A DNA stretch of 64,000 bases. Source: a virus (lineage: Duplodnaviria > Caudoviricetes). Each line of letters starts with the position of its first letter. Position 1 is the stretch's first letter. The stretch spans positions 245-64,244 of the IMG/VR virus record IMGVR_UViG_3300020171_000025; one strand, written 5' to 3'. Below are positions 3,875-24,781 of this stretch, one piece after another. The translations under genes were made by a program, and so were the position numbers. A model generated the notes under the pieces. That model was not told where the DNA came from and did not search any database. It was given only the letters and a program-made list of their open reading frames with translations.

Positions 3875-4780
3875 TTAGAGACACCCAGCTCTTGGAGTTG
3901 CGGTATGATCGTAATTGTGCATCCTTAACCTTTGGGCATTGATCTTTCCCTTTGACTCTTCAAATAGCCCTCTGTGGTATTCAGCCTTATTCTTGTCGTA
4001 ACCCTCTGAGTCCTGTTTTAAGTAGGCCCTCTTTGCCATGCCGTCTAAGAGGTATCCGTGAAAAGAAGACTTGATTTCAGGAGAAGCCGTCGATATTGTG
4101 GCTGTAGTAAGGGGAGTTGCGGGGAGACGGTTGACGACAAGGAGGGCCGTATCCTCAACTTTTCTCAGAGTGGCACTTTTTAAGTCTTCTGTGGCTAAGG
4201 CCCCTACCGTGGTCATCGTGGTAGTGCCGACAGTGGCAAGGGTAAAATAACCGTTATTAAGAGTCGTTCCAGAAATGTTGATCTCATCCCCTACGGCGTA
4301 ATGGGCAGTAAAGGTTTCCAATGGTTTGGTTATGGTATTCGTCGTAACGGCAAATGAGATATTGGAGACCCCTATCACTTCCCCATCGGTATTGAATTTA
4401 GGGTAGAAAGTGATATATCCTGTGTAGGCATCGGGAATCATAATGTAGGGTGTTCCCGTTCCTGCCCTCCAATTCGATACCCTGTGATCGAGATAGTTTT
4501 CGTCCTTCTCTGTGTATGGGCTTCCGGTATCGCTCGATCTACCACTAATGACGTTCACAATCTTCTCACTCATAGCGTAAGATCCAACATTGGAGAGCAA
4601 CTTGATATTGCAGATGGAGGTGGTAGTCTCATCCTTTATAACCATACACTCGCTACAGATTTCGTTTTCCGCTTCATTTGCATAGAAAACTTTTTCGCTA
4701 ACACTCCAAAGTGGACGGTCTGTATCGGTATCGTCAAGGATTGAAGAACTCAATAAATCAATGATCTCTTGCCACGTCAT
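3875..4780 (-). CDS. Head-tail adaptor protein
   Basis: LDD...LWS..E...Y.NEAE.EIC and PEI...H..L.D....RAYLKQD.E.YD motifs of podoviral adaptors, with an inserted beta-rich domain. Confidence 0.7.
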   Translation of the reverse strand: MTWQEIIDLLSSSILDDTDTDRPLWSVSEKVFYANEAENEICSECMVIKDETTTSICNIKLLSNVGSYAMSEKIVNVISGRSSDTGSPYTEKDENYLDHRVSNWRAGTGTPYIMIPDAYTGYITFYPKFNTDGEVIGVSNISFAVTTNTITKPLETFTAHYAVGDEINISGTTLNNGYFTLATVGTTTMTTVGALATEDLKSATLRKVEDTALLVVNRLPATPLTTATISTASPEIKSSFHGYLLDGMAKRAYLKQDSEGYDKNKAEYHRGLFEESKGKINAQRLRMHNYDHTATPRAGCL

Positions 4781-4900
4781 CGTTTACCCCTTTTTCTTCT
4801 TCAAGAATCCAGTCAACAAATTCCTTCCTTAGCCAGCCGTAGGATACGGCCTTAGCAAGAATTTCTGCCTTTACCTCTTCATCCATCTCAATCCAGTGGT

Positions 4901-6238
4901 TCATCTTTTAAACATCCGAGCATTACCAACTTGTTCAAATTGCGTGTACCCGTACTCTTCAAGCAACTTGGTCAGATCGTCCCACCCCAACTCGAAAATG
5001 TGGGTTCCCCAATAGTCCGTCCAGTTGACTTCGGGGGTTGTCGCCTTGAAGTCAGAATCGATGTAGATAAATTTGATGGGATAGTCCTGCGCTTTGATCG
5101 CTTCAAGAATTGCCCTGAAATTCCCGGCCTTCATGTGTTCGAGGGAATGAGACATAAACAGGACATTGTAGAGTGTGTAATCGAATGGAGTATCCCAGAT
5201 GTAATTGTCGAGAACTCTTGCATTGTATCGTTCATTCTTACAAAGAGTGTTTTTAACGGCATCTTCGCAGATTTCGACATTAACCCATGAATAGACTTTA
5301 TCGAAATTATCCAGTACATCTCCACCCACAACCCCTGTCCATCCTCCAATCTCAAGTACATCATCTAAATTAGACAAAGCGGTAGTGATTTCGTAAACTG
5401 GAAACACCCTTCCGAAAAACTTCTTTATCGCTTCCCAATTAAACCGGTTCTGATTCGGGAATTGCTTACAGATAGCGTTATAAAACTCCTTCTGCTTCTC
5501 ATACGATATCTCGTCGTAGTTTTTTCTCCATGTGTTAAAAATCTCTAACCACGCATCCCTCCCCTGTGACTCCTGATACCCACTTTCTACGGGACAACAG
5601 ATTTCATGTGTCCATGTTCCGTCAGGGTTTCTTTTAGGCCATGCCGTTGCATGGGTTGTATGACCGATATGGTTATCGAGGTCTAACCACATCTTGAATC
5701 CCACTTCCCTTACCTTCTCGCAAAGGTACAAATCAGACCCACCCGCTTCAACATGGGTTTTACCGTTCTCAAACCAGGGGTCGGTAAGGGTTCCCAAAAG
5801 ATTCTTTTTCATCAAAGTACCGGCGTTTCCAATCGTGTAGTCTGTGGCATCCCAGATGCCGGTTTTGCCATCAAAGACGGATTTCGGAATACGTCTATAC
5901 CCGTTCTTAGCCGACCCGTGGACAACCGTATCAAAGGGTTCCGCCCTGCGTAAACAAAACGGAGTGATCATGTCAACATTACGCTCCAATAGCTTTACTA
6001 ACAGGTCCGGTTTAAACACATGATCATCGCCTAAGATCCATAACCACTCGTACCCTTTCTTAAGGGTAAGCCTTACCAACTCGTTAAAGTTTTGGGCTAT
6101 GTTTACCCCTAACGCCCATTCAATGTATGTTCCCGAAGGAGCGATAATGTTTTTCAGACAAACATCAAATTCACGGTATCGTCCCAGAAACGAACTCGTA
6201 ATCCCAATGACCCCCTTTTTGTAACCACTTAAATCCAT
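4901..6238 (-). CDS. GT2-type glycosyltransferase fused to a class I SAM-methyltransferase-like domain
   Basis: N-terminal half: EWLWILGDDH (DxD-like), GSDLYLC, GF..WLD....GH. C-terminal half: VLEIGGWTG, VEIC, SHSLEHM. Start placed at ATG 6238, downstream of a terminator. Confidence 0.8.
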   Translation of the reverse strand: MDLSGYKKGVIGITSSFLGRYREFDVCLKNIIAPSGTYIEWALGVNIAQNFNELVRLTLKKGYEWLWILGDDHVFKPDLLVKLLERNVDMITPFCLRRAEPFDTVVHGSAKNGYRRIPKSVFDGKTGIWDATDYTIGNAGTLMKKNLLGTLTDPWFENGKTHVEAGGSDLYLCEKVREVGFKMWLDLDNHIGHTTHATAWPKRNPDGTWTHEICCPVESGYQESQGRDAWLEIFNTWRKNYDEISYEKQKEFYNAICKQFPNQNRFNWEAIKKFFGRVFPVYEITTALSNLDDVLEIGGWTGVVGGDVLDNFDKVYSWVNVEICEDAVKNTLCKNERYNARVLDNYIWDTPFDYTLYNVLFMSHSLEHMKAGNFRAILEAIKAQDYPIKFIYIDSDFKATTPEVNWTDYWGTHIFELGWDDLTKLLEEYGYTQFEQVGNARMFKR

Positions 6239-6303: not shown

Positions 6304-8244
6304 TTACAGTGCTCCACCTGCACCGGCAGCAACCGTAGCACCGGCCTCAAGTGGTTCCCACCAGCAGAGAAAACGGAGGTTCCCGGCGGTAGTTGCACTC
6401 GTAATCGTATAACCAATGTCAAGATTCGTAATGACATCAATGACATGGTTATAGGCCAGGTTTTTGGTATTGGACACTGAGGACGCATGAAACCAATATT
6501 CACCCGTGTCTATACCTACTCCAGTTGTGTTGGCAATCAAACCATTGGTTGTTATTGAATCACCCAATCTAAAAAGACCACCGGCAGAACAAGCTATGCC
6601 CGTTGTGCAATAAGGGATAATTCTGATACGGTTCGTACCAGACACCGCAAGAATCTCGTGGGCAGTCTTAGCGTTCCATGTGGCACTTGTCATAAGGGCA
6701 TTGACGGCAAGGTGCCTTGAATTGGTAGAAATGGCCGCATCCTGCACGCCGACAAGACCTTTTAGGTAAGACATTGCACTCAGGGTATCCGCAGCAGTAT
6801 ATTTTGCCACATCTGTTTTGTTACCAATAACATCATTCACGAAACCGTTCGCAGTGGCTGACTGGGCCGGTACAGTAATTTTACTGATCACACCTTTGAG
6901 GTAAGACAATGCACTGACCGTAGTAGAAACGGCAGTTCGGGTAGGATCAATTTTGTTGCCCACTACGTCATTAACAAAAGCATTCGTAGTGGCAGACTGA
7001 GCCGGAACTGTTATCTTTCCGATAATACCCTTTAGGTAGGATAATGCGCTCACGGTATTGGACGATGCGGTTCGAGCGGGATCAGTCTTATTACCTACCA
7101 CATCGTTGACAAAACCGTTTGCTGTAGCAGATTGAGCGGGAACGGTAATCTTGCTGACAATGCCTTTCAGGTATGAAAGGGCACTTACCGTACTTGAGGA
7201 CGCTGTTCTGACAGGATCAGTCTTGTTGCCGACGACATCCCTTACAGTTGTATTAGTCGTTGCAGACTGAGCAGGAACATCAAAGTATCCATCGACGACA
7301 TCAATTTTGCCTTCAACACCTGTAGAAACCGCTGTTCCAATAGGATCGCCAGAATATCCATCCGTGGTAAACCCTTCGCAGTCATTTCCCCACTGAATCT
7401 TTCCTACACTTGTAACGTAGGTTGATCCAGAGGCAACCCTTGACTTCACGTTCTTTGCAAATCCAGTCGTGTTGGAGTGGATATTTAGGCCGGGAAGAGG
7501 ACCGGTATTGGTATTGTTCACGTAGACGTTTTCGAGAATCACGTTTGTTAATGCAGCCGTGCTCTCGATAGGGGCTACGTTGAAATCACCATCGATCTGG
7601 ATATTTTTCAGTTCGATGTGATCTCCACCGGCAAGTTGAATGTTAGAGTGCTTCTGTGTACCCGTTGTGGACGGAACATACTTCCAACCGTTGATCTTTA
7701 AACGGTCAGCCGCCGAAGAAGCGACAAGGGCATGCGTGACACCCAATCCAGCCGCATCACGCCATTCCACGTTATTGAATGTAACATCAGCCGCAGTGAC
7801 ATGAAGGGGGGTTGAAAGGGCATCGATAGCCGACACGAACAAAGGATTGTTAAGGGTGACGCCGGTAGCAGAAAAGTTGATATCAGACAAAACTACCGCA
7901 CCCGTACCGAAATTGACCTTTGCCCTGCTTGCACCACTTCCTAAGAAATGGACGGTTACACCGATCTTACTGAACGCTCCACCGGCAGCCGCAATAACGG
8001 ACTCCACATGACCGGGAAGGCAAAAAATATGATCCCCGTGACTTGCAGTACAAAGCGCATGAGCACCGGAAGTACCGAAGATCGTAGCCTTAGCCGAATT
8101 GGGTGTAAGGCCATCATTACCGTCACTCCCGTGGACAGAATCGACGTACAGTTTCTTGCCCTTTGTAACTACGTTGGTGACGGCACCATTGCCTAAAATA
8201 TTGTCAACGTTAAGTTGACCTACTGACAATTCCTCGTATCTCAT
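6304..8244 (-). CDS. Head fibre/decoration protein with a beta-helix-like domain and four 45-aa repeats
   Basis: YVDSVHGSDGNDGLTP..AKATI opening typical of beta-helix proteins; AAGGAG RBS before ATG 8244; adjacent to capsid genes. Confidence 0.7.
   Translation of the reverse strand: MRYEELSVGQLNVDNILGNGAVTNVVTKGKKLYVDSVHGSDGNDGLTPNSAKATIFGTSGAHALCTASHGDHIFCLPGHVESVIAAAGGAFSKIGVTVHFLGSGASRAKVNFGTGAVVLSDINFSATGVTLNNPLFVSAIDALSTPLHVTAADVTFNNVEWRDAAGLGVTHALVASSAADRLKINGWKYVPSTTGTQKHSNIQLAGGDHIELKNIQIDGDFNVAPIESTAALTNVILENVYVNNTNTGPLPGLNIHSNTTGFAKNVKSRVASGSTYVTSVGKIQWGNDCEGFTTDGYSGDPIGTAVSTGVEGKIDVVDGYFDVPAQSATTNTTVRDVVGNKTDPVRTASSSTVSALSYLKGIVSKITVPAQSATANGFVNDVVGNKTDPARTASSNTVSALSYLKGIIGKITVPAQSATTNAFVNDVVGNKIDPTRTAVSTTVSALSYLKGVISKITVPAQSATANGFVNDVIGNKTDVAKYTAADTLSAMSYLKGLVGVQDAAISTNSRHLAVNALMTSATWNAKTAHEILAVSGTNRIRIIPYCTTGIACSAGGLFRLGDSITTNGLIANTTGVGIDTGEYWFHASSVSNTKNLAYNHVIDVITNLDIGYTITSATTAGNLRFLCWWEPLEAGATVAAGAGGAL
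6760..7280 (-). repeat. Four intragenic tandem repeats, 135-nt (45-aa) period
   Basis: VPAQSAT.N..V.DV[VI]GNK.D......T[VL]SA[LM]SYLKG; the VPAQS anchor recurs near 7265, 7130, 6995 and 6860. Confidence 0.9.
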
Positions 8245-8346
8245 TTCGTTTTCTCCTTGTGGGACCAATTCACATGGCGTGGTCCTTCAACCATGCTACG
8301 GTTAAGTACAAGGAGGGTACGAAGAGTACCCCCCTTCAGGACAGGT

Positions 8347-8835: not shown

Positions 8836-9639
8836 TTATGTAAGAACCGGCCTTCCGTACAGGCAACCCAGGGCCTCTTCCTTAATCACCTTGAACCCGA
8901 AGACGTTAAGACCGGCCATTAACTGACCGAAGGTTGTTTCAGGCTGCGGGATGAACTTTGTTTCGGTGTACTGCGAAGCGAAGGTCAATGCCATCGGATG
9001 TCCGAAGATCATGTTGTAGGCATAGGCCGAACCTTCCAAGGTTTTCTCTAAAAGGTTGCTTGTGTAGATCGTGAATCGGTCAACCCTTCCAAGCCTTCCG
9101 TTTCTTAACGTTGAAACGTTGTCTCCGGTAAGGGAAGCATCCTTGATATCAGAGGTCTTCAGAAGCACAGCCGCTATTGAAGGAATCAGCAAGAAACGGT
9201 CTGTCTCAGGCACATTCTCCTCGTCAAGAACTCCACCTGCGTAGCAGATGTAGTTGATGATATTGGAACGGCTGATATCGACAGGGGAAGTGGACTCACC
9301 AAGATTGTAGGCAGCGCAAACGTGTCCGGCTGTCGTTCCTTTGTTTGAAGCATGGGCAGAACCATCCAACGTAGGAAGAACGGTTTCCTCAATCGCCTTC
9401 TTCATCCGGTAGGTGGCATCCTCGGCCCACTTGTCCATTAACTTAATGTCAGACTGATACCGGTCAATGTTGTCGATCTTGAATGCCCATTTCTTAGCGT
9501 AGTCAATCGTCAACTCAATGTCCGGTGATTCGATGTTCTCATACGTGATCGTATCGTTCTTGTGATAGTCGCTAACAGTCACATCCCCAATAGTGCGGAT
9601 GTAAACCTTATCACCTAATTTCTTGATCTCCCCTTCATA
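8836..9639 (-). CDS. Major capsid protein, exon 2
   Basis: YEGEIKKLGDKVYIRT..LTID..K..AFKIDNID..QSDI..GVLDEENVP...RFLLIP..FGFKVI. Joins exon 1 in frame to give NTD|YEGEI (313 aa in total). Confidence 0.92.
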   Translation of the reverse strand, partial: YEGEIKKLGDKVYIRTIGDVTVSDYHKNDTITYENIESPDIELTIDYAKKWAFKIDNIDRYQSDIKLMDKWAEDATYRMKKAIEETVLPTLDGSAHASNKGTTAGHVCAAYNLGESTSPVDISRSNIINYICYAGGVLDEENVPETDRFLLIPSIAAVLLKTSDIKDASLTGDNVSTLRNGRLGRVDRFTIYTSNLLEKTLEGSAYAYNMIFGHPMALTFASQYTETKFIPQPETTFGQLMAGLNVFGFKVIKEEALGCLYGRPVLT

Positions 9640-10696
9640 CAATTTGTTATCGTTGAGGCTCTTTATCCTCAACCTCTTGCGGTTCGCTATTCCCGCAAGT
9701 TCGGACTATCTCATCACCCTTGTAGAAAGTGCCGTCTTTCTTTTTAGACTTTCTTCCTTCACGTATTCTTGCCACCTCCCTGTAATGCTTTCGGGAATAA
9801 CAACGGGGACACAGTCCACCGTACCTTTTGGCATACACAGGAGAAGCACATTTAACGCAATGGGTTAGGGGTGCCCGGTGCTCGTGCAAACCAAGATTTG
9901 CCACATGAGCCAACTTATACATCATGGAAGGAATAATGTATGGCTGGACTAATCCGATAAATTCCCTACTATTTTTGGTATTAGCTTCAAGAAACCATTG
10001 TTTACCATCTGAACAGCGTTTATCGAATCGTGCGTTGAATGAAATTCCGTATTCTTCACTGAAATATTTTTGAAGAATCAGAACTTCTTCGTTACTACAC
10101 ATTGTGGCAATGTCGGTAGAAACTGAACTAACCCAACCTTCCTTGTTTCTGTTGATCCGTGCATGACCGTCGTCCATATACCAAAGTGCAATTCCTTCCG
10201 GTGTCAGCATATCCAATACGTGTCTCGAAAATGTTTTTTTCCCATTCGGATATAACCATTCTCTGAGTTGCTTGAAATATGGGTTTGACACAGAAAAGGC
10301 ACAGTATCGGTATTTGTTATTCGGACCATGCATCCCAAAGGATACTGAGAAATTTCCACCGAGATGCTTTTTAATTAATCCCGCCTTATGTTCGCAATAA
10401 TCTTTCTGTACAATTGAATGAAGTATTCTCATTTCCGAAGAAACATAATGATATTTATCTTTCATCCTGTAACGAACATTCAGGAAAGCATCACCGAGGA
10501 CCATTCCAACCAAAATACCTCTGGTTTCTACCTTCATCTCGTCTCCTATCGGGGCATAAAGCCCGGAGAATTAATCTTAGTTTGTAGTCTCTGAACCTTG
10601 TCCTTTCGGACCTTGGCTGCTGATTCCCATTTCAGGGTTCCAGCAATTCGCCGGGTTTGCACCGTTACGTTTCCGCAACGGGGGACTATGTTACTA
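9640..10696 (-). ncRNA. Group I self-splicing intron (1057 nt) in the major capsid gene
   Basis: Exon 1 ends in U and the intron ends in G. P1 GGAU|UA pairs with UAGUCC with the U-G wobble at the splice site. Core elements P AATTGCTGGAA, Q AATCAGCAG, R GTTCAGAGACTACA, S GAGATAGTCC, plus a P9 hairpin. Confidence 0.93.
9647..10537 (-). CDS. Intron-encoded LAGLIDADG homing endonuclease with a C-terminal Cys4 motif
   Basis: ILVGMVLGDA and GIALWYMDDG (two-motif, I-SceI-like), IIPSMMYKL, CVKC..CPRC; AGGAG RBS. Confidence 0.9.
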   Translation of the reverse strand: MKVETRGILVGMVLGDAFLNVRYRMKDKYHYVSSEMRILHSIVQKDYCEHKAGLIKKHLGGNFSVSFGMHGPNNKYRYCAFSVSNPYFKQLREWLYPNGKKTFSRHVLDMLTPEGIALWYMDDGHARINRNKEGWVSSVSTDIATMCSNEEVLILQKYFSEEYGISFNARFDKRCSDGKQWFLEANTKNSREFIGLVQPYIIPSMMYKLAHVANLGLHEHRAPLTHCVKCASPVYAKRYGGLCPRCYSRKHYREVARIREGRKSKKKDGTFYKGDEIVRTCGNSEPQEVEDKEPQR

Positions 10697-10834
10697 ATCC
10701 GTATTGCTTATGTCGCTTAAAAACAAAGCGTCAAAAAGTTTCTCGATTAGCTTGGGAGACCAAAGCGCGGGAATATAGTTACTGGTCCCTGTAGATGAAT
10801 AATCCGGGTATCCGGCTGCTCTTCCTACTGTCAT
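10697..10834 (-). CDS. Major capsid protein, exon 1 (46 codons)
   Basis: AGGAGG RBS, then MTVGRAAGYPDYSSTGTSNYIPALWSPKLIEKLFDALFLSDISNTD; too short for the ORF track. Confidence 0.9.
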
Positions 10835-10849
10835 TTGAATTTCCTCCTG

Positions 10850-11914
10850 TTATCCGCTAAGGAGAATCCCCCTTAGTCGGGCTTCTTCTTTCTTGTAATC
10901 GATATCCGAACCTGGATATCTCCTGTTGGCTTTCTGTCTTGCCATTTCCTCCAACCTCGCCCCAGCCTTCTCTTTACTCATTACCGGTTGACTAACAGTC
11001 GTTGAGGGTGCAGCACTCGAAGCCCTTGCGGGGGCTATGCGTGATGCAACCTTGCTCGGATTGATAGTCGCCGGGGTAGACGTAGTTGAAGGTTTCCCGT
11101 TGACACCAAGGAACACGTCAAAGAATTTGAGAATCCTTCGGCTGTCCCATTGTTCTAATGCGTTTTTCCAAAGTGCATAGCGGGGTAGACCGGACAGGGC
11201 ATCCTCTTCTTGCATAAACACAGAAAAGTCTGCTGATTTTTGAATCTCTCTCCAATCAGGTTTCCCATCCTTTCCCGAATACACTTTGTCCAAGTCTCCA
11301 TAAAAGGCAGACTGTTTTGTCTGTATCTTCTCTTTATGCTCAACCTCGAACTTCTGGTTGATTTGAGACTGAACACTTCCTATGGCTTCCTGAATCATTC
11401 CCCGGCAGACGATGACGGTTGCTTCATAAATTTCGTCATATTCCTTGGCGAATGCTTTGACTTTAGGATCGTCGGTTACGGACTTAGGGGTTGCAACGTC
11501 AATAGGCTTGCTATCGACAGGTTTGATCTCCCTCTGTGCCAACTCTTGAACCTGCTGACTCAGATATTCAACCCTTTCGGTAAGGGCCTTAGAAATCGGA
11601 ACTTCCGCTCGATACTTCCCGTCCATGACCTGATAACGATGCTCAGCTTCATCTAAAAGGCTTTTGGGCACCATTTCCTCTATGGGTTGAGCCGGTTCCT
11701 GCGGTTGAGGTTCGGCCTGTGCTACTGGTTCGATGACCCCTGGGGCCTGTTGTTCGGGTTCCACTACGGGTTGAGGTTCGATGGGAGCCACGGGTTCTTG
11801 AGGTGGTTGAGCCTCTTCCGGTGGTGTTCCCTCTGACAACTGTTTTCCCCGTTCCTCGATCAACTTATTCGCCCTTTCTACCGCTTCCCTGTCTTCTCTG
11901 CGTAACCTTGCCAT
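10850..11914 (-). CDS. Capsid scaffolding protein
   Basis: Glu/Pro/Gln-rich N-terminus, EHRYQVMDGKYRAEVP, PDWREI..S.DF..F; immediately upstream of the capsid gene. Confidence 0.8.
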   Translation of the reverse strand: MARLRREDREAVERANKLIEERGKQLSEGTPPEEAQPPQEPVAPIEPQPVVEPEQQAPGVIEPVAQAEPQPQEPAQPIEEMVPKSLLDEAEHRYQVMDGKYRAEVPISKALTERVEYLSQQVQELAQREIKPVDSKPIDVATPKSVTDDPKVKAFAKEYDEIYEATVIVCRGMIQEAIGSVQSQINQKFEVEHKEKIQTKQSAFYGDLDKVYSGKDGKPDWREIQKSADFSVFMQEEDALSGLPRYALWKNALEQWDSRRILKFFDVFLGVNGKPSTTSTPATINPSKVASRIAPARASSAAPSTTVSQPVMSKEKAGARLEEMARQKANRRYPGSDIDYKKEEARLRGILLSG

Positions 11915-17520: not shown

Positions 17521-19614
17521 CTACTGTGCCATCGGTTTGAATAGTTCCTGTCCCGCTCCCTGTGCTGGATTACCTGCCTGATCCAAAGTCTGAGGCCCCG
17601 CTGTAGGAGCCATGCCCTGTCCCGGCATCGGGATAGGTTGCATCATACTTTTATCGGGTACAACTTTATCGGCCTCAAGGTCCATACTCTTAGCCGTTTC
17701 TTTTAGAACATATGTTCTTCCGTCTATCCCCATAATCTGTAAGTCAATGGGGTTCGCCGTCGCCCTACCAAAGTCAGTCAATCTGAGGGCCTTCTGCTGT
17801 TTTTCCAGTAATGCGGAAGATCCTTTTGCCCTGATCTTGACATCCCCTATGTACTCAACAGCATCGTCCAACTCAAAGTTGTCGTAGTAAAGGGCCTCTA
17901 TAGATGGGGCTATTACGTTGTCGTCAAGTGATTTTGCTACACCCTTTATCCCTCTATCGGAAGCACCCATTAGCATTGACAAACCGGAGGCGGTATTGCC
18001 GGCTCCCCCAACTTGCGAGTCGCCGTGGGCATATGCGGGAACGCCTGAATGTTCATCTGCAACTTTTGACCAGTGGTTATAGACCTGGATCAACTCGGAG
18101 GCGTGTAGAGAAGGTTGAAAAAACTCAATAGGTTTAGCACCACCCATGAGATATTGCTTCGTGAACTTCCATATCCTCCACGGCCACATTTTATCGACGT
18201 TTTCTCCAGGAGCTATCTTGTCCGTGTCTATTGCTACTTGTGGCCCAGAAGCCATCCCCACATTATTATCCATTGCCCTTGACGTAGCATTAGCTGATCC
18301 TTGAGGGCATTTAATGGTTTCCGGCAAACCCAATCCCCAGAACGTTCCCGGTTTCTCTACAAAGGACGCCTTGTAGTACGGTTTCAATCCAAGAGGATTT
18401 TCGTTCAGGGAGATTTTAAGAATCCATTGGTCTATCAGGTAGAGAACGACATCGTAATCAAAGTCTGGATCAAGAACTTGACCGAATGTTTCCTGTCCTT
18501 TATCTTCTGGATTTTCGGCCCATTCAAGAAGCATCTTTCCGGGTATTGGTCCACTGTATTTAACCCCGTCTATCTTGTCCCAATCGTAGTATTGAGATGT
18601 TTCCTTGTCCTTGGCCTCTTCTATTTCCTGTTGGTCCCATGTCCATTCATGCAGACCCTTCTCTTGGAATTTCGCCAGCACTTCACGGATAGCATCTTCG
18701 TCGAATTCTTCAAGCCCAATCAAACCTTGAATCTCTTTTCGTGTCCAGGGAATACGCTCGTAAATAGCGGAATCATTTATTCCTGTCGCTCCAGGTGCGG
18801 GATATATATCGAATGGGCATGGGGCATCCCATTCAGCGATTACCCTGTCCTCAAATCCCGGTGTAGCCCTCTTCGTGATGGGGTCAACATTCAGAACCCT
18901 TACCTTCTTGTTACGGTATATCGGACCTGATAAGAATCCGGCTTTGAGATGAATGATGTTCCAAATACAGTCTGAGAGGGCCTTGTAGTATCCACCCTCG
19001 ACAAGTTGATCTTCCATCTTCAACTTCATGGACTGTGCCTTCTCTTTGGCAATATCCATACGGATCTTCTTGAATCGGGTCTTAAACTCCGAAGCCTTCT
19101 GCTGGACCATCTGTTGAATAGCCATCGGGTTCATACCGACCTGTTGCATAGCCATACCTGCCTGTTCCAAGAAACTCTGCATCTCTTCGGCAAGAACCTG
19201 ATTTGCCATCCTCTCCTGTTCAGGTGTTAGTTCCGGCACAGGTGTCGGCTCGATATCCCACGGGGTCTGACCAGGCTGGAACAATCCTCCTGTGATCCAC
19301 GCATAGGTAGCACGGCATTTCGTCCCGGTAATCCCGGTGAAGTTCTCCGAACCTAATTCCCGAATATCTGCAAGTTTGGCGGGGTCGTACTCCCCATTGA
19401 TCTGTCGAAGATTCTCGATCATCAAATCCTTAATAGGCAACTTGTCCTTACGAGCATCCGCAAAACCATCCTTGACGTAGGCCACAAGTTCGGTCTTTAA
19501 CGCTTCAGGGGCATCAGATATCTTTGCGACTTCACGTGAGAGTGTTGCTTTCTTTGTCTCTTCGGCAATCAATTCGTTATTATTCTGAACCGGAATTAAA
19601 CCTATGGAAGCCAT
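17521..19614 (-). CDS. Portal protein
   Basis: 697 aa downstream of terL; LRQ.NGEYDP, PWDIEPTPVPEL, PFDIYPAPGA, FWG.GLPE, MASGPQV, ADE.SGVPAY, GAG.TASGLSMLM. Confidence 0.9.
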   Translation of the reverse strand: MASIGLIPVQNNNELIAEETKKATLSREVAKISDAPEALKTELVAYVKDGFADARKDKLPIKDLMIENLRQINGEYDPAKLADIRELGSENFTGITGTKCRATYAWITGGLFQPGQTPWDIEPTPVPELTPEQERMANQVLAEEMQSFLEQAGMAMQQVGMNPMAIQQMVQQKASEFKTRFKKIRMDIAKEKAQSMKLKMEDQLVEGGYYKALSDCIWNIIHLKAGFLSGPIYRNKKVRVLNVDPITKRATPGFEDRVIAEWDAPCPFDIYPAPGATGINDSAIYERIPWTRKEIQGLIGLEEFDEDAIREVLAKFQEKGLHEWTWDQQEIEEAKDKETSQYYDWDKIDGVKYSGPIPGKMLLEWAENPEDKGQETFGQVLDPDFDYDVVLYLIDQWILKISLNENPLGLKPYYKASFVEKPGTFWGLGLPETIKCPQGSANATSRAMDNNVGMASGPQVAIDTDKIAPGENVDKMWPWRIWKFTKQYLMGGAKPIEFFQPSLHASELIQVYNHWSKVADEHSGVPAYAHGDSQVGGAGNTASGLSMLMGASDRGIKGVAKSLDDNVIAPSIEALYYDNFELDDAVEYIGDVKIRAKGSSALLEKQQKALRLTDFGRATANPIDLQIMGIDGRTYVLKETAKSMDLEADKVVPDKSMMQPIPMPGQGMAPTAGPQTLDQAGNPAQGAGQELFKPMAQ

Positions 19615-19772
19615 TTATGCTCCTTACGTCCACGCCCCGTTTCACCGCTTGTTATCCTGTACAGTATCCCCAGACCAGAAGACCCACACACAAAACCATA
19701 CCAGCACACATTGCCATAAATGCAAGTTCTGCATCCAAGTCAGGAATCCTTATCATGTCCATGCCCCGTTAT

Positions 19773-20267
19773 TTACGCATAGTTAAAACACAACTGACCG
19801 AACCAGTCCGGTCTGACAAGTTTGTATAGACCCTCTTGAACTTGGAAAACTACCGCCTTCGTAGTTCCAAAGAAGGCATAATTGGCTAATTCTGTGCGGG
19901 GAAGAAAATTGCTAATATAAATATCGAAATACAAACCAATGACCCTACCTAATTTATTGGAGTACGATATTCCCCACGCGTCTCTCTGTATTAAGTGTGA
20001 TGGTAATAGGGCCGCAAACGGAAGAGGAATAATACAGAATGGTTCACCGTAATCTCCCATCGGCAATGCTTCATCCAAAACCCCTTCCATATGTACAAGA
20101 ATGTCCAATGCATTCTCTTTCATAATCAGAAACGGGGCTTTTGTGATTCCAAGATTATACGCACTTGACTTTTTTCCCGCTGTATATCCCCGGTTGTACT
20201 CAGCACACTTATCCACAAGACTTAAAAGTATCTGTGAATCGGATAGTACTTTATCTATCATGTCCAT
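19773..20267 (-). CDS. Truncated, diverged paralog of the major capsid protein (C-terminal region)
   Basis: Collinear motifs shared with capsid exon 2: NRGYTAG..SAYNLG / NKGTTAG..AAYNLG; GVLDE; IP..A.LL; LGRV; F.IY.SN.L; FG...A..F. Confidence 0.75.
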   Translation of the reverse strand: MDMIDKVLSDSQILLSLVDKCAEYNRGYTAGKKSSAYNLGITKAPFLIMKENALDILVHMEGVLDEALPMGDYGEPFCIIPLPFAALLPSHLIQRDAWGISYSNKLGRVIGLYFDIYISNFLPRTELANYAFFGTTKAVVFQVQEGLYKLVRPDWFGQLCFNYA

Positions 20268-21769
20268 GCCCCCACCGATAACGGTTTCTGAACCGATGTT
20301 ACTGTTCGTTGCCTGCGGTAATACTGAATCCCACGCTCAAGGAATAAAGCCCCGTATTGAAGTGCATCGTGTACATGGGAAAACTCATTCTTGTCCGGTT
20401 TATCCCCATACCGCTGATGTCTTGCATCGTAAATGCGTTTGTACTTGTACTCCCCCTCGAATCCCCGGATCAGTTTTTCACAGGATGGATCAACCTGAAG
20501 TGCCCCTTTGTTCCCCGGCAATCTTTTGATAAGAAGCGAATTGACCGCATCGAATCTCGCTATCGGGTCGTTGGTTACACAGGGTTCGGCGGGTAGTCCC
20601 GCATCTATCAACTCCTGAAAGCAATCAGACCCACTGGCCCTATCCATAGCCTTCCCGGTCAAATCTCCTGTACCAAGGATTTCCATGCCGAGATAGTTAC
20701 CGACGATATACGGTTTGACCCTCTCGTTGACGAATTGGCGTAGCCCTGTGTATTCTCCGATAAATTCCTTCTTGATATTGACCACACCGGAAGGTAATTG
20801 TTGGGCAATCAAACAGGCCGAAAAATCAGACCCAAAATCCCATCCAAGGACAATCGGGTATGCCCTGACTATTTCTATCGGTTGTTTTGAAACGTGAACT
20901 TCTGAATCCCAATTCCCGTAAACGGGTTTCCCCTCTCTCACATATCCGTACTCAGCCCTGACATTGACCTTTATAAAGTCTTCTGTGTTTTTCAGGCATA
21001 GGTCTTCATAGTAGTTTCTCTCAAGGTTGGGAAGGTTTTCTGCATGGACACCTTTTATCGGAATGGCCTTAATGCCATCGGGATGTTTGTTTAGCCCAGA
21101 AGGTTGCCTGAAGTGTTCCAGAAAGAGTTCCCCGGCCTTCTCATGTCCATCTGGATAGAGATGACTGTCTTTTTCAAGAAGTCGATAAAGCCAGTGGTCG
21201 GTATCAGGGGGGTTACTGTCTGCGATAATCCCTCTCCACGTTGCCCCTCCATCCTCCATCTTCGGGTATCGTCCCGTCCGTCCGAACGAGTCGTTGAAGA
21301 TGATTTCAGAAATCTGTTTTAGTTCGTTGAACCAAACTCCTGTGAGTTCGAGGGAGAGTAATTTCTTCCGGTCCTGCGGATCGTCGAGGGCAAGGAACAT
21401 GAACTCGGCCAGTAGTTGAGAACCATCAGGTAGTGGCCGGTTAATGACAAAAGTTTTTTCTGCTACCTTGTGGTCTCCGTGGATACCTGGTTCAAACCAT
21501 TCAAAGAAACTCTTTTGGGTCGTACTTGAGAGTTCTTTATAGGTATTCCTTACCAATGCCCATCTGGTTTTTCTCACACCTTTGGCATCCGGCTTTTGCT
21601 CAGAGGACCGCTTGAATAACTCCATGATGCAACCGACGGATTTGCCTGAACCCCACGGGCCGATGATTATCCGATACGGGGCATTGCTCTCCATGAGTGC
21701 CTGAATAGTCGGCACATATTTTGCCGAATACTTCTTTCCCGGATATTCGATTACGAGGGCTTTAGGCAC
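20258..21769 (-). CDS. terL: Terminase large subunit
   Basis: Walker A GPWGSGKS, RWALVRNTY.EL, LLSLELTG.WFNE, DSNPPD, nuclease motifs LGWDFG and SHVHDALQY. Confidence 0.95.
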   Translation of the reverse strand: MPKALVIEYPGKKYSAKYVPTIQALMESNAPYRIIIGPWGSGKSVGCIMELFKRSSEQKPDAKGVRKTRWALVRNTYKELSSTTQKSFFEWFEPGIHGDHKVAEKTFVINRPLPDGSQLLAEFMFLALDDPQDRKKLLSLELTGVWFNELKQISEIIFNDSFGRTGRYPKMEDGGATWRGIIADSNPPDTDHWLYRLLEKDSHLYPDGHEKAGELFLEHFRQPSGLNKHPDGIKAIPIKGVHAENLPNLERNYYEDLCLKNTEDFIKVNVRAEYGYVREGKPVYGNWDSEVHVSKQPIEIVRAYPIVLGWDFGSDFSACLIAQQLPSGVVNIKKEFIGEYTGLRQFVNERVKPYIVGNYLGMEILGTGDLTGKAMDRASGSDCFQELIDAGLPAEPCVTNDPIARFDAVNSLLIKRLPGNKGALQVDPSCEKLIRGFEGEYKYKRIYDARHQRYGDKPDKNEFSHVHDALQYGALFLERGIQYYRRQRTVTSVQKPLSVGAWT

Positions 21770-24580: not shown

Positions 24581-24781
24581 TCAAAATTCATCTTCCGGTT
24601 GATGTCTTGCAAATCTCCACACTACGTTGTCCTGAAACCATCCATAAATCTTATACCAAATGCGTTTGTGCCAAGGAGAACGTGGCAGAGGTTTGTAAAA
24701 TTGATTCATAAAAATTGAGTCTTCTAAAGACTTTAAAAAAACTGGTGCCCAAATTTCTGGTATAAAATTAGTTTCGGTCAT
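24581..24781 (-). CDS. Small protein whose N-terminus resembles the capsid N-terminus
   Basis: TNFIPEIWAPVFLKSLEDSIF versus capsid SNYIPALWSPKLIEKLFDALF. Confidence 0.55.
   Translation of the reverse strand: MTETNFIPEIWAPVFLKSLEDSIFMNQFYKPLPRSPWHKRIWYKIYGWFQDNVVWRFARHQPEDEF

Follow-up and report, generated by a model that had tools for sequence, protein, structure and literature searches.

A stand-alone, half-size capsid-fold protein encoded between the terminase and portal genes of a groundwater phage

The vertex protein gp24 of phage T4, a paralog of gp23, has a complete capsid fold and is a component of the lattice. Among eukaryotes, mouse Fv1 and sheep enJS56A1 are capsid-derived restriction factors that interfere with the capsids of related viruses. 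Ccm is a full-length capsid-protein homolog that is encoded by a satellite and co-assembles into shells. In passages of the report on SaPIbov5, this homolog is described as redirecting the assembly of the helper's capsid (PMC8569155). Here we analyze another extra capsid-fold protein, which we call the mini-capsid, encoded between the large terminase gene terL and the portal gene of an uncultured groundwater phage. The phage is represented by the virus record IMGVR_UViG_3300020171_000025 (64,244 bp, rated 100% complete), of which the stretch analyzed, hereafter the window, covers nearly all (64,000 nucleotides, positions 245 to 64,244).

Like T4 gp24, the mini-capsid is a second capsid-fold paralog in one phage genome; unlike gp24, it lacks the elements that interlock subunits and belongs to another sequence family of major capsid proteins (MCPs). 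Fv1 and enJS56A1 have a different fold and are host-encoded and eukaryotic, and the comparison is one of analogy only. With Ccm, as portrayed in the passages cited above, the mini-capsid shares the nature of an extra HK97-fold homolog apart from the working capsid gene, and it too would act on the assembly of another capsid; Ccm is the best precedent for the mode of action that we propose. Unlike Ccm, the mini-capsid is truncated and resides on a complete phage genome with its own MCP: terL, portal, scaffold and MCP genes are all present, and the genome is not that of a satellite without a full head module. To this resident HK97-fold MCP it is 34% identical, and the two share a fold in the spine helix, A-domain and late P-domain strands, but the mini-capsid is half the size, lacks the N-arm, the E-loop, an early P-domain strand and the last ~27 residues, is encoded outside the scaffold–MCP pair and is faster evolving, as seen in its long branches. 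Full-text literature searches, supplements aside, turned up neither natural truncated MCPs that stand alone nor capsid decoys in phages; the "truncated major capsid protein" of 10.1101/2022.09.09.507160 is, in the passage using the term, a product of in-silico trimming and not a natural protein.

Homology to the major capsid protein and predicted fold

The comparison involves three open reading frames (ORFs) of the window:
19773..20267, minus strand: mini-capsid ORF, ATG to stop, 164 aa, or 162 aa if translated from the second ATG; corresponds to HK97 gp5 residues ~211-383 in a structural search of models
8836..9672, minus strand: ORF with exon 2 of the resident major capsid gene, matching the MCP profile from about 9648; full-length relative of the mini-capsid
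10697..10834, minus strand: exon 1 of the resident major capsid gene, 46 aa; an intron with a LAGLIDADG ORF separates it from exon 2

The mini-capsid matches the resident capsid protein well beyond chance. In BLASTP against the exon-2 ORF (E 1e-15), 55 of 162 positions were identical (34%), mini-capsid residues 10-159 pairing with capsid-ORF residues 95-251. An initial annotation, made by eye from the letters, had aligned the ORF with the C-terminal half of the phage's own capsid protein, and the alignment agrees with it down to every motif pair cited there. The annotation had described the N-terminal half and about 20 residues before the last strand as missing; the first of these is indeed absent, whereas no such internal deletion was seen, the gaps being small (17 positions in total) and the homology ending after "FGQL" so that the last ~27 capsid residues have no counterpart. 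The frame is intact from ATG to stop, in agreement with the earlier remark that it has no internal stops.

Wider searches gave the same picture. A filter-only phmmer search of 1.84 billion representatives with the mini-capsid returned 67 matches at E ≤ 1e-3, most of them proteins of ~300-330 aa aligned over their residues ~125-285. A profile built from 66 phmmer-derived sequences (307 positions; hereafter the MCP profile) found three pieces in the genome, namely exon 2 (E 1.8e-111), the mini-capsid (8.3e-41, positions 123-283) and exon 1 (1.5e-8); its nearest solved relative in sequence is gp6 of the Mycobacterium phage Che8 (PDB 8E16, E 4e-38), and the MCP family from which the mini-capsid derives is Che8/P22-coat-like. 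In tblastn against 50,697 phage records, the mini-capsid matched solely annotated MCPs, in four Rhizobium phage records (E 1e-8). The phage's own MCP belongs to PHROG 267 (1e-41), and the mini-capsid had no match to any Pfam or PHROG family at E ≤ 0.1. It is thus similar in sequence to the HK97-fold MCP superfamily (Pfam Phage_capsid_2 / Phage_capsid_4, PHROG 267) but escapes the curated family models. A recent duplication of the resident MCP is an unlikely origin, as the identity to that protein (34%) compares with 35-37% to foreign MCPs and 40% to another short protein, P0002, although a tree-topology test described below does not statistically exclude it.

With a 66-row alignment, AlphaFold2 (AF2) modeled the mini-capsid at a predicted local distance difference test (pLDDT) of 92 and a predicted template modeling score (pTM) of 0.86. 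As these rows are mostly full-length capsid proteins, we repeated the prediction with the seven mini-capsids of the family alone: the pLDDT and pTM were 67 and 0.65, and the order of helices and strands was unchanged. In an exhaustive VIA search of 48,161 chains with this minis-only model, the top 50 were solely HK97-type capsid, encapsulin or herpesvirus capsid-floor chains. The best match was the LME-1 capsid (Z 9.6, root-mean-square deviation [rmsd] 3.5, 141 aligned); T4 gp24 (PDB 1YUE) gave Z 7.6, rmsd 3.7 and 142 aligned, and HK97 gp5 residues 212-383 gave Z 6.8. For the 66-row model, the best match was to LME-1 capsid residues 105-288 (Z 11.0, rmsd 3.0, 142 aligned), with Z 8.4 for gp5 residues 211-383. 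The Foldseek E-values for the mini-capsid model were modest, the best being 1.7e-3. An alignment-free ESM Atlas model (pTM 0.65) likewise retrieved capsid clusters. Three capsid clusters in that resource have representatives of 159-169 aa; these may be contig-end fragments and are leads only.

In terms of HK97 gp5, we take the matched range to include the A-domain, the late P-domain strands and the greater part of the spine helix. Absent are the N-arm and E-loop, the first strand of the P-domain and, at the end, ~27 residues. The complete HK97 fold, with N-arm, E-loop, P-domain with spine helix, and A-domain, is not found in the mini-capsid. Alignment, AF2 models and structural search bear out the initial view of an A-domain-centred portion of the HK97 fold, and the lack of subunit-interlocking elements supports the suggestion that the piece is incompetent for assembly. 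By these models, the mini-capsid is predicted to be an intact half-size copy of the capsid fold, unable to build a shell alone.

The mini-capsid family and its genomic settings

Six of the short phmmer matches had mini-like boundaries. With the window's protein (P0001), they make up the family set:
P0002: 152 aa; 40% identical to the window's mini-capsid, E 1.1e-19
P0003: 215 aa; 70-aa N-terminal extension
P0036: 161 aa
P0051: 155 aa
P0062: 168 aa
P0044: 150 aa; the most divergent mini-capsid

The members are 150-215 aa long, start just before the N-x-G-x-T-A-G motif at the spine helix and are without N-arm or E-loop; five of the six others begin within ~16 residues of a common MCP position. 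Pairwise identities to the window's protein are 24-40%, and the 13 columns invariant across the seven are conserved in full-length capsid proteins, too. The alignment of P0001 with P0002 begins at their first two residues and runs to a shared end just after G-Q-L, and P0001, P0002 and P0003 end alike, just after GQL/GEL. Each mini-capsid is a cluster of one or two sequences on one to five contigs. We computed a tree of 54 rows, consisting of the seven mini-capsids, two resident MCPs and 45 matches of 295-360 aa; left out, for lengths outside 295-360 aa, were P0005, P0012, P0014, P0015, P0017, P0023, P0030, P0031, P0034, P0035, P0048, P0050, P0053, P0054, P0061 and P0068. All seven mini-capsids formed one side of a branch with a Shimodaira–Hasegawa-like approximate likelihood ratio (SH-aLRT) support of 93, and none of 500 label shuffles was as clustered. 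The nearest neighbors of the window's mini-capsid were P0002 and P0003, not its own MCP.

The sequences suggest that the mini-capsid belongs to a rare, undescribed family of shell-incompetent capsid derivatives, whose shared boundaries give indirect support to the earlier notion that the piece has been retained. A profile search of a 5.8-billion collection with the seven mini-capsids returned six proteins, the sole new one being P0069 (308 aa), and scans of IMG/VR with P0002 and with P0044 found no relatives. Four further proteins of 91-94 aa (P0034, P0050, P0053 and P0061) have a mini-like capsid motif block in their first ~50-60 residues, followed by an unrelated C-terminal part.

In the window, the minus-strand gene order is terL, mini-capsid, a 36-aa ORF, portal, several large ORFs, a scaffold-like gene and the major capsid gene. 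The Pfam and PHROG assignments of the two flanking genes confirm the placement between terL and portal given by the initial annotation, which left the strand unnamed. The neighboring features are as follows:
20258..21769, minus strand: large terminase gene terL; Pfam and PHROG matches
20256..20272, minus strand: direct repeat copy 1, 17 nt, exact; spans the end of terL with its final codons and TGA stop (20258-20260), and both mini-capsid ATGs (20267, 20261)
19751..19767, minus strand: direct repeat copy 2, 17 nt, exact; 5 nt after the mini-capsid stop, giving the 36-aa ORF its MDMI start
19652..19762, minus strand: 36-aa hydrophobic ORF, between repeat copies 2 and 3
19626..19640, minus strand: degenerate core of the repeat, the third copy, with two A-to-G changes; directly before the ribosome-binding site and ATG of portal
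17521..19614, minus strand: portal gene, SU10-portal-like, PHROG 332; Pfam and PHROG matches
10850..11914, minus strand: scaffold-like gene

The terL stop and the start of the mini-capsid ORF overlap by 10 nt. Because its ATG lies 7 nt ahead of the terL stop, the mini-capsid is probably translated by coupling to terL. Counts of promoter-like sites (three against 4.2 expected) and of terminator-like hairpins (six against 2.9 expected, one of them inside the 3' end of the mini-capsid ORF) were uninformative. The latter hairpin, followed by a T-rich tail, lies at 19796-19813 on the minus strand in the last codons and is a consensus match only.

The mini-capsid forms a 505-nt cassette flanked by the exact 17-nt direct repeat, of which the 64 kb hold exactly two copies at ≤3 mismatches (0.18 expected; 3 of 100 shuffles had two or more). 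On the simplest reading, an ancestral tight terL–portal junction took up two cassettes, the 36-aa ORF first and the mini-capsid later. As P0002 also starts with "MI", the start codon is probably native to the mini-capsid gene, and for this reason the repeat may have arisen either by duplication of the target or by a recombination event at start regions with a short stretch of identity. The GC content of the gene (0.408) is the lowest of 16 genes measured, next to 0.412 for the homing-endonuclease ORF and 0.445-0.521 for the other 14. An identical 1,150-nt contig from a run of another study (X2, record 8) spans both repeats, which rules out an assembly artefact; this run and the probable source run both carry the label groundwater metagenome. 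Contigs of four runs contained no joint skipping the cassette, runs X3 and X4 having no coverage there. The 36-aa hydrophobic ORF may encode a small membrane peptide.

A second complete genome, that of a distantly related 61,457-bp phage with terminal repeats (G001), encodes P0036 at loci L004/L005; these, the sole two DNA copies of any mini-capsid, are 100% identical over 17,111 bp. The G001 portal is 32% identical to that of the window, and its scaffold and MCP belong to the same PHROGs (13678 and 267). There, the mini-capsid (L005 7630-8115; 26% identical to the G001 MCP) lies ~1.3 kb downstream of portal, between the portal and scaffold genes, its start overlapping the preceding stop and its stop the following start. 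Directly after it, a 61-codon frame (L005 8103-8285, plus strand) matches MCP profile positions ~162-204 with E 3e-4 to 6e-4, a third and smaller capsid-like piece. P0044 (L012 33-485; L013 1110-1202) has replication genes as its neighbors on one contig, and on a second contig it lies next to an IS1595-like transposase gene. From the locations in G001 and of P0044, the family is not tied to a single genomic position.

We retrieved 80 IMG/VR loci by portal alignment (portals 27-38% identical; flanks of at most 10 kb; some near-duplicates) and scanned all their stop-to-stop frames with the MCP profile. Most contained a full or contig-cut MCP; mini-capsids located elsewhere in these genomes would be missed because of the short flanks. 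Both terL and portal were present in 46 loci and co-oriented in 21, of which nine had the two frames ≤44 nt apart and 12 had gaps of 118-624 nt, compared with 647 nt in the window. Candidate frames were found in 11 of the 12 longer gaps, and none was capsid-like (MCP profile, E ≤ 1e-3). The terL–portal position had been named by the initial annotation as the place to search for homologs in related phages; a capsid-like ORF was found in none of the 21 co-oriented junctions. Gap ORFs unrelated to the mini-capsid include those at L014 3364-3645 (94 aa), L035 9542-9898 (119 aa) and L061 5146-5688 (181 aa), and by its gene content the junction looks like a hot spot of accessory-gene insertion in this phage group. 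A scan of IMG/VR with terL alone found no relative.

The resident capsid gene and other capsid-like pieces

In the region 9640-10850 (minus strand), an insert of ~1 kb interrupts the major capsid gene behind its first 46 codons. The insert carries a LAGLIDADG ORF (9647-10537, 296 aa, Pfam PF03161, 1.2e-24) and a match to the group I intron model RF00028 at 10546-10706 that is below threshold (28.8 bits against a gathering score of 50, E 5.5e-5). We considered whether the mini-capsid could be a spare homing site or a co-conversion tract; it cannot, because the intron site falls at profile positions ~41-44 and the mini-capsid starts at ~122. Among the related loci, some capsid genes also appear split or incomplete although not cut by a contig end: in L022, 284 nt separate two pieces (4559-5251 and 5536-5781), L058 has just a 57-aa N-terminal piece (7809-7979) and L093 a capsid starting from profile position 46 (20485-21273). 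These may reflect further introns.

Elsewhere in the window, residues 4-28 of a 66-aa ORF (24581-24781, minus strand) resemble residues 18-42 of capsid exon 1 (BLASTP E 1e-6; 8 of 25 identical, 18 of 25 similar); this ORF may encode a second capsid-derived peptide but is absent from the MCP profile matches in the genome. A 654-aa ORF (6304-8268, minus strand) has about four tandem repeats of ~40 residues in the middle of the protein ("PAQSAT...VSALSYLKG" units) and looks tail-fibre-like.

Possible roles of the mini-capsid

The ORF is a real accessory gene for a shell-incompetent derivative of an HK97-fold MCP; its expression, its binding to MCP and its effect on assembly are what we infer. In HK97-type lattices, the E-loop and N-arm of each subunit lie over its neighbors, and the A-domains pack around the capsomer axis. 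The mini-capsid would keep the surfaces that accept neighbors (the spine helix, the sides of the A-domain and the P-domain sheet) and lack the parts that reach them (the N-arm, the E-loop and the C-terminal strands). We tentatively favor the possibility that it works as a capsid subunit of a non-propagating kind, binding to MCP-type surfaces and modulating or poisoning assembly. It would dock onto MCP subunits or nascent capsomers, either of its own phage or of a co-infecting relative, and, because the accepting surfaces are kept and the donating arms lost, it could join a forming capsomer yet not pass the contact on. The outcome would be a cap or poison of capsomer and shell assembly or, in small doses, a modulator.

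The only hint of function comes from co-folding of the mini-capsid with MCP exon-2 residues 9-278, which gave a result of the class "weak support", with a score of 0.38 (runs 0.28, 0.38 and 0.45) against 0.00 for the best of three controls; the runs agreed in at least 72% of contacts, and the partner pLDDT was at least 75. Among solved complexes, 58 of 80 reach the mark applied, as do 2 of 110 pairs that are mismatched; at scores ≤0.60, those reaching it are 7 of the 80 solved complexes and both of the passing mismatches.

Several observations speak against this explanation. A co-folding pass of the weak class is wrong more often than not, except where the guess had been likely from the outset, and this one may reflect the model's memory or likeness only, since capsid lattices are solved structures. 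A poison of assembly would hurt its own phage unless it is scarce or specific for foreign MCPs. The family is very rare, with ~7-11 short members among the 1.84 billion representatives; tblastn found no mini-capsid among the 50,697 phage records, nor did pattern scans of IMG/VR and GTDB genomes with an alignment of P0001 and P0002 yield any, and an extra internal mini-like ORF was present in just two of the 80 loci (L049 and L050), both from the G001 phage. The mini-capsids are long branches, for which reason their grouping may be partly an artefact, and an approximately unbiased (AU) test on 55 rows, the only analysis to include P0069, does not reject a clade of the window's mini-capsid and its own MCP (log-likelihood difference 17.4, p-AU 0.295). 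Finally, the exact repeats and low GC fit a recent arrival, for which an intact frame in this one genome would be hardly informative about selection.

A broader idea, which we regard as rather doubtful, is that unrelated phage lineages repeatedly evolve soluble, shell-incompetent mini-capsids as mobile single-gene cassettes, serving either as weapons, by dominant-negative capping of the capsomers of rivals or satellites, or as shields that blind the capsid sensors of the host. This genome might then hold a set, the C-half mimic together with the N-arm-like 66-aa ORF at 24581-24781.

Two other explanations seem to us unlikely, to a similar degree. The first makes the mini-capsid an immune decoy or sponge, displaying A- and P-domain surfaces to a capsid sensor (CapRel-, Avs- or Lit-like) that it binds without activating or titrates. 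The retention of the A-domain and the late P-domain strands in a protein that cannot join the shell would suit this, as would the fast divergence of the family (24-40% identity), which is as expected of a protein in an arms race. According to the passages of PMC9712102 on the interface, CapRel-SJ46 contacts strand beta5 of the P-domain and a loop of the A-domain of an HK97-fold MCP, and a figure legend of a 2026 preprint refers to Avs proteins modeled on MCPs. However, the escape sites reported for CapRel in those passages (residues ~113-124; PMC9712102) may precede the mini-capsid start in the fold. The place of the gene in a late packaging and head operon and its coupling to terL suggest low and late expression instead of an early excess, and the G001 mini-capsid likewise sits among head genes. 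The literature searches described above, with the same exception of supplements, revealed no capsid decoy of phages, and none appears in the "CapRel" and "decoy" passages of a November 2026 review.

The second explanation sees the mini-capsid as a functionless relic, a fragment of a foreign capsid gene recently captured at the terL–portal hot spot, through short-homology recombination or template switching, and by chance in frame with a start codon already present there. The 17-nt flanking repeats, a GC content under that of all 14 other non-mobile genes measured, the rarity of the family, the unrelated inserts at the same junction in relatives and an AU test that leaves the origin open are all consistent with such a capture. 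On the other hand, the "MI..." N-terminus and the C-terminal end match those of P0002, a 40% identical protein on other contigs, and these shared ends indicate that a whole gene moved and not a random fragment. Seven intact and similarly bounded ORFs at such low identity would be hard to obtain by independent accidents, the alignment of mini-capsids alone yields a compact HK97-like model, and the identical cassette recurs in a contig from the run of a second study.

Last, a minor structural protein present in a few copies per virion at a special site, such as the portal vertex or capsomer centers in the manner of T4 gp24, would fit the position between terL and portal with coupling to terL, whose product is needed in small amounts, the location of the G001 mini-capsid just after portal, the weak co-folding support with MCP and the structural match to gp24, but it is very unlikely, as the protein is without the N-arm, E-loop and C-terminal strands by which all known HK97-fold subunits are fixed in the lattice and, being absent from 78 of the 80 related loci with the same portal and MCP types (within the flanks searched), it cannot be an essential part of the virion.

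What is new here, as far as sequences and models indicate, is the small mini-capsid family, its fold and the structure of its cassette; the functional role is a proposal. The anatomy of the cassette shows how such a gene moves, with one exact 17-nt repeat bearing both the stop codon of a gene and the start codon of its successor. Few triggers of bacterial immunity are as well documented as capsid proteins, which satellite "piracy" also targets, and a natural half-capsid protein that stands alone would be a ready-made probe of either. If the mini-capsid caps capsomers, as we tentatively propose, it would represent a new type of interference between viruses and could serve as a tool in work on HK97-fold assembly; were it to blind sensors, it would represent a new class of anti-defence protein.

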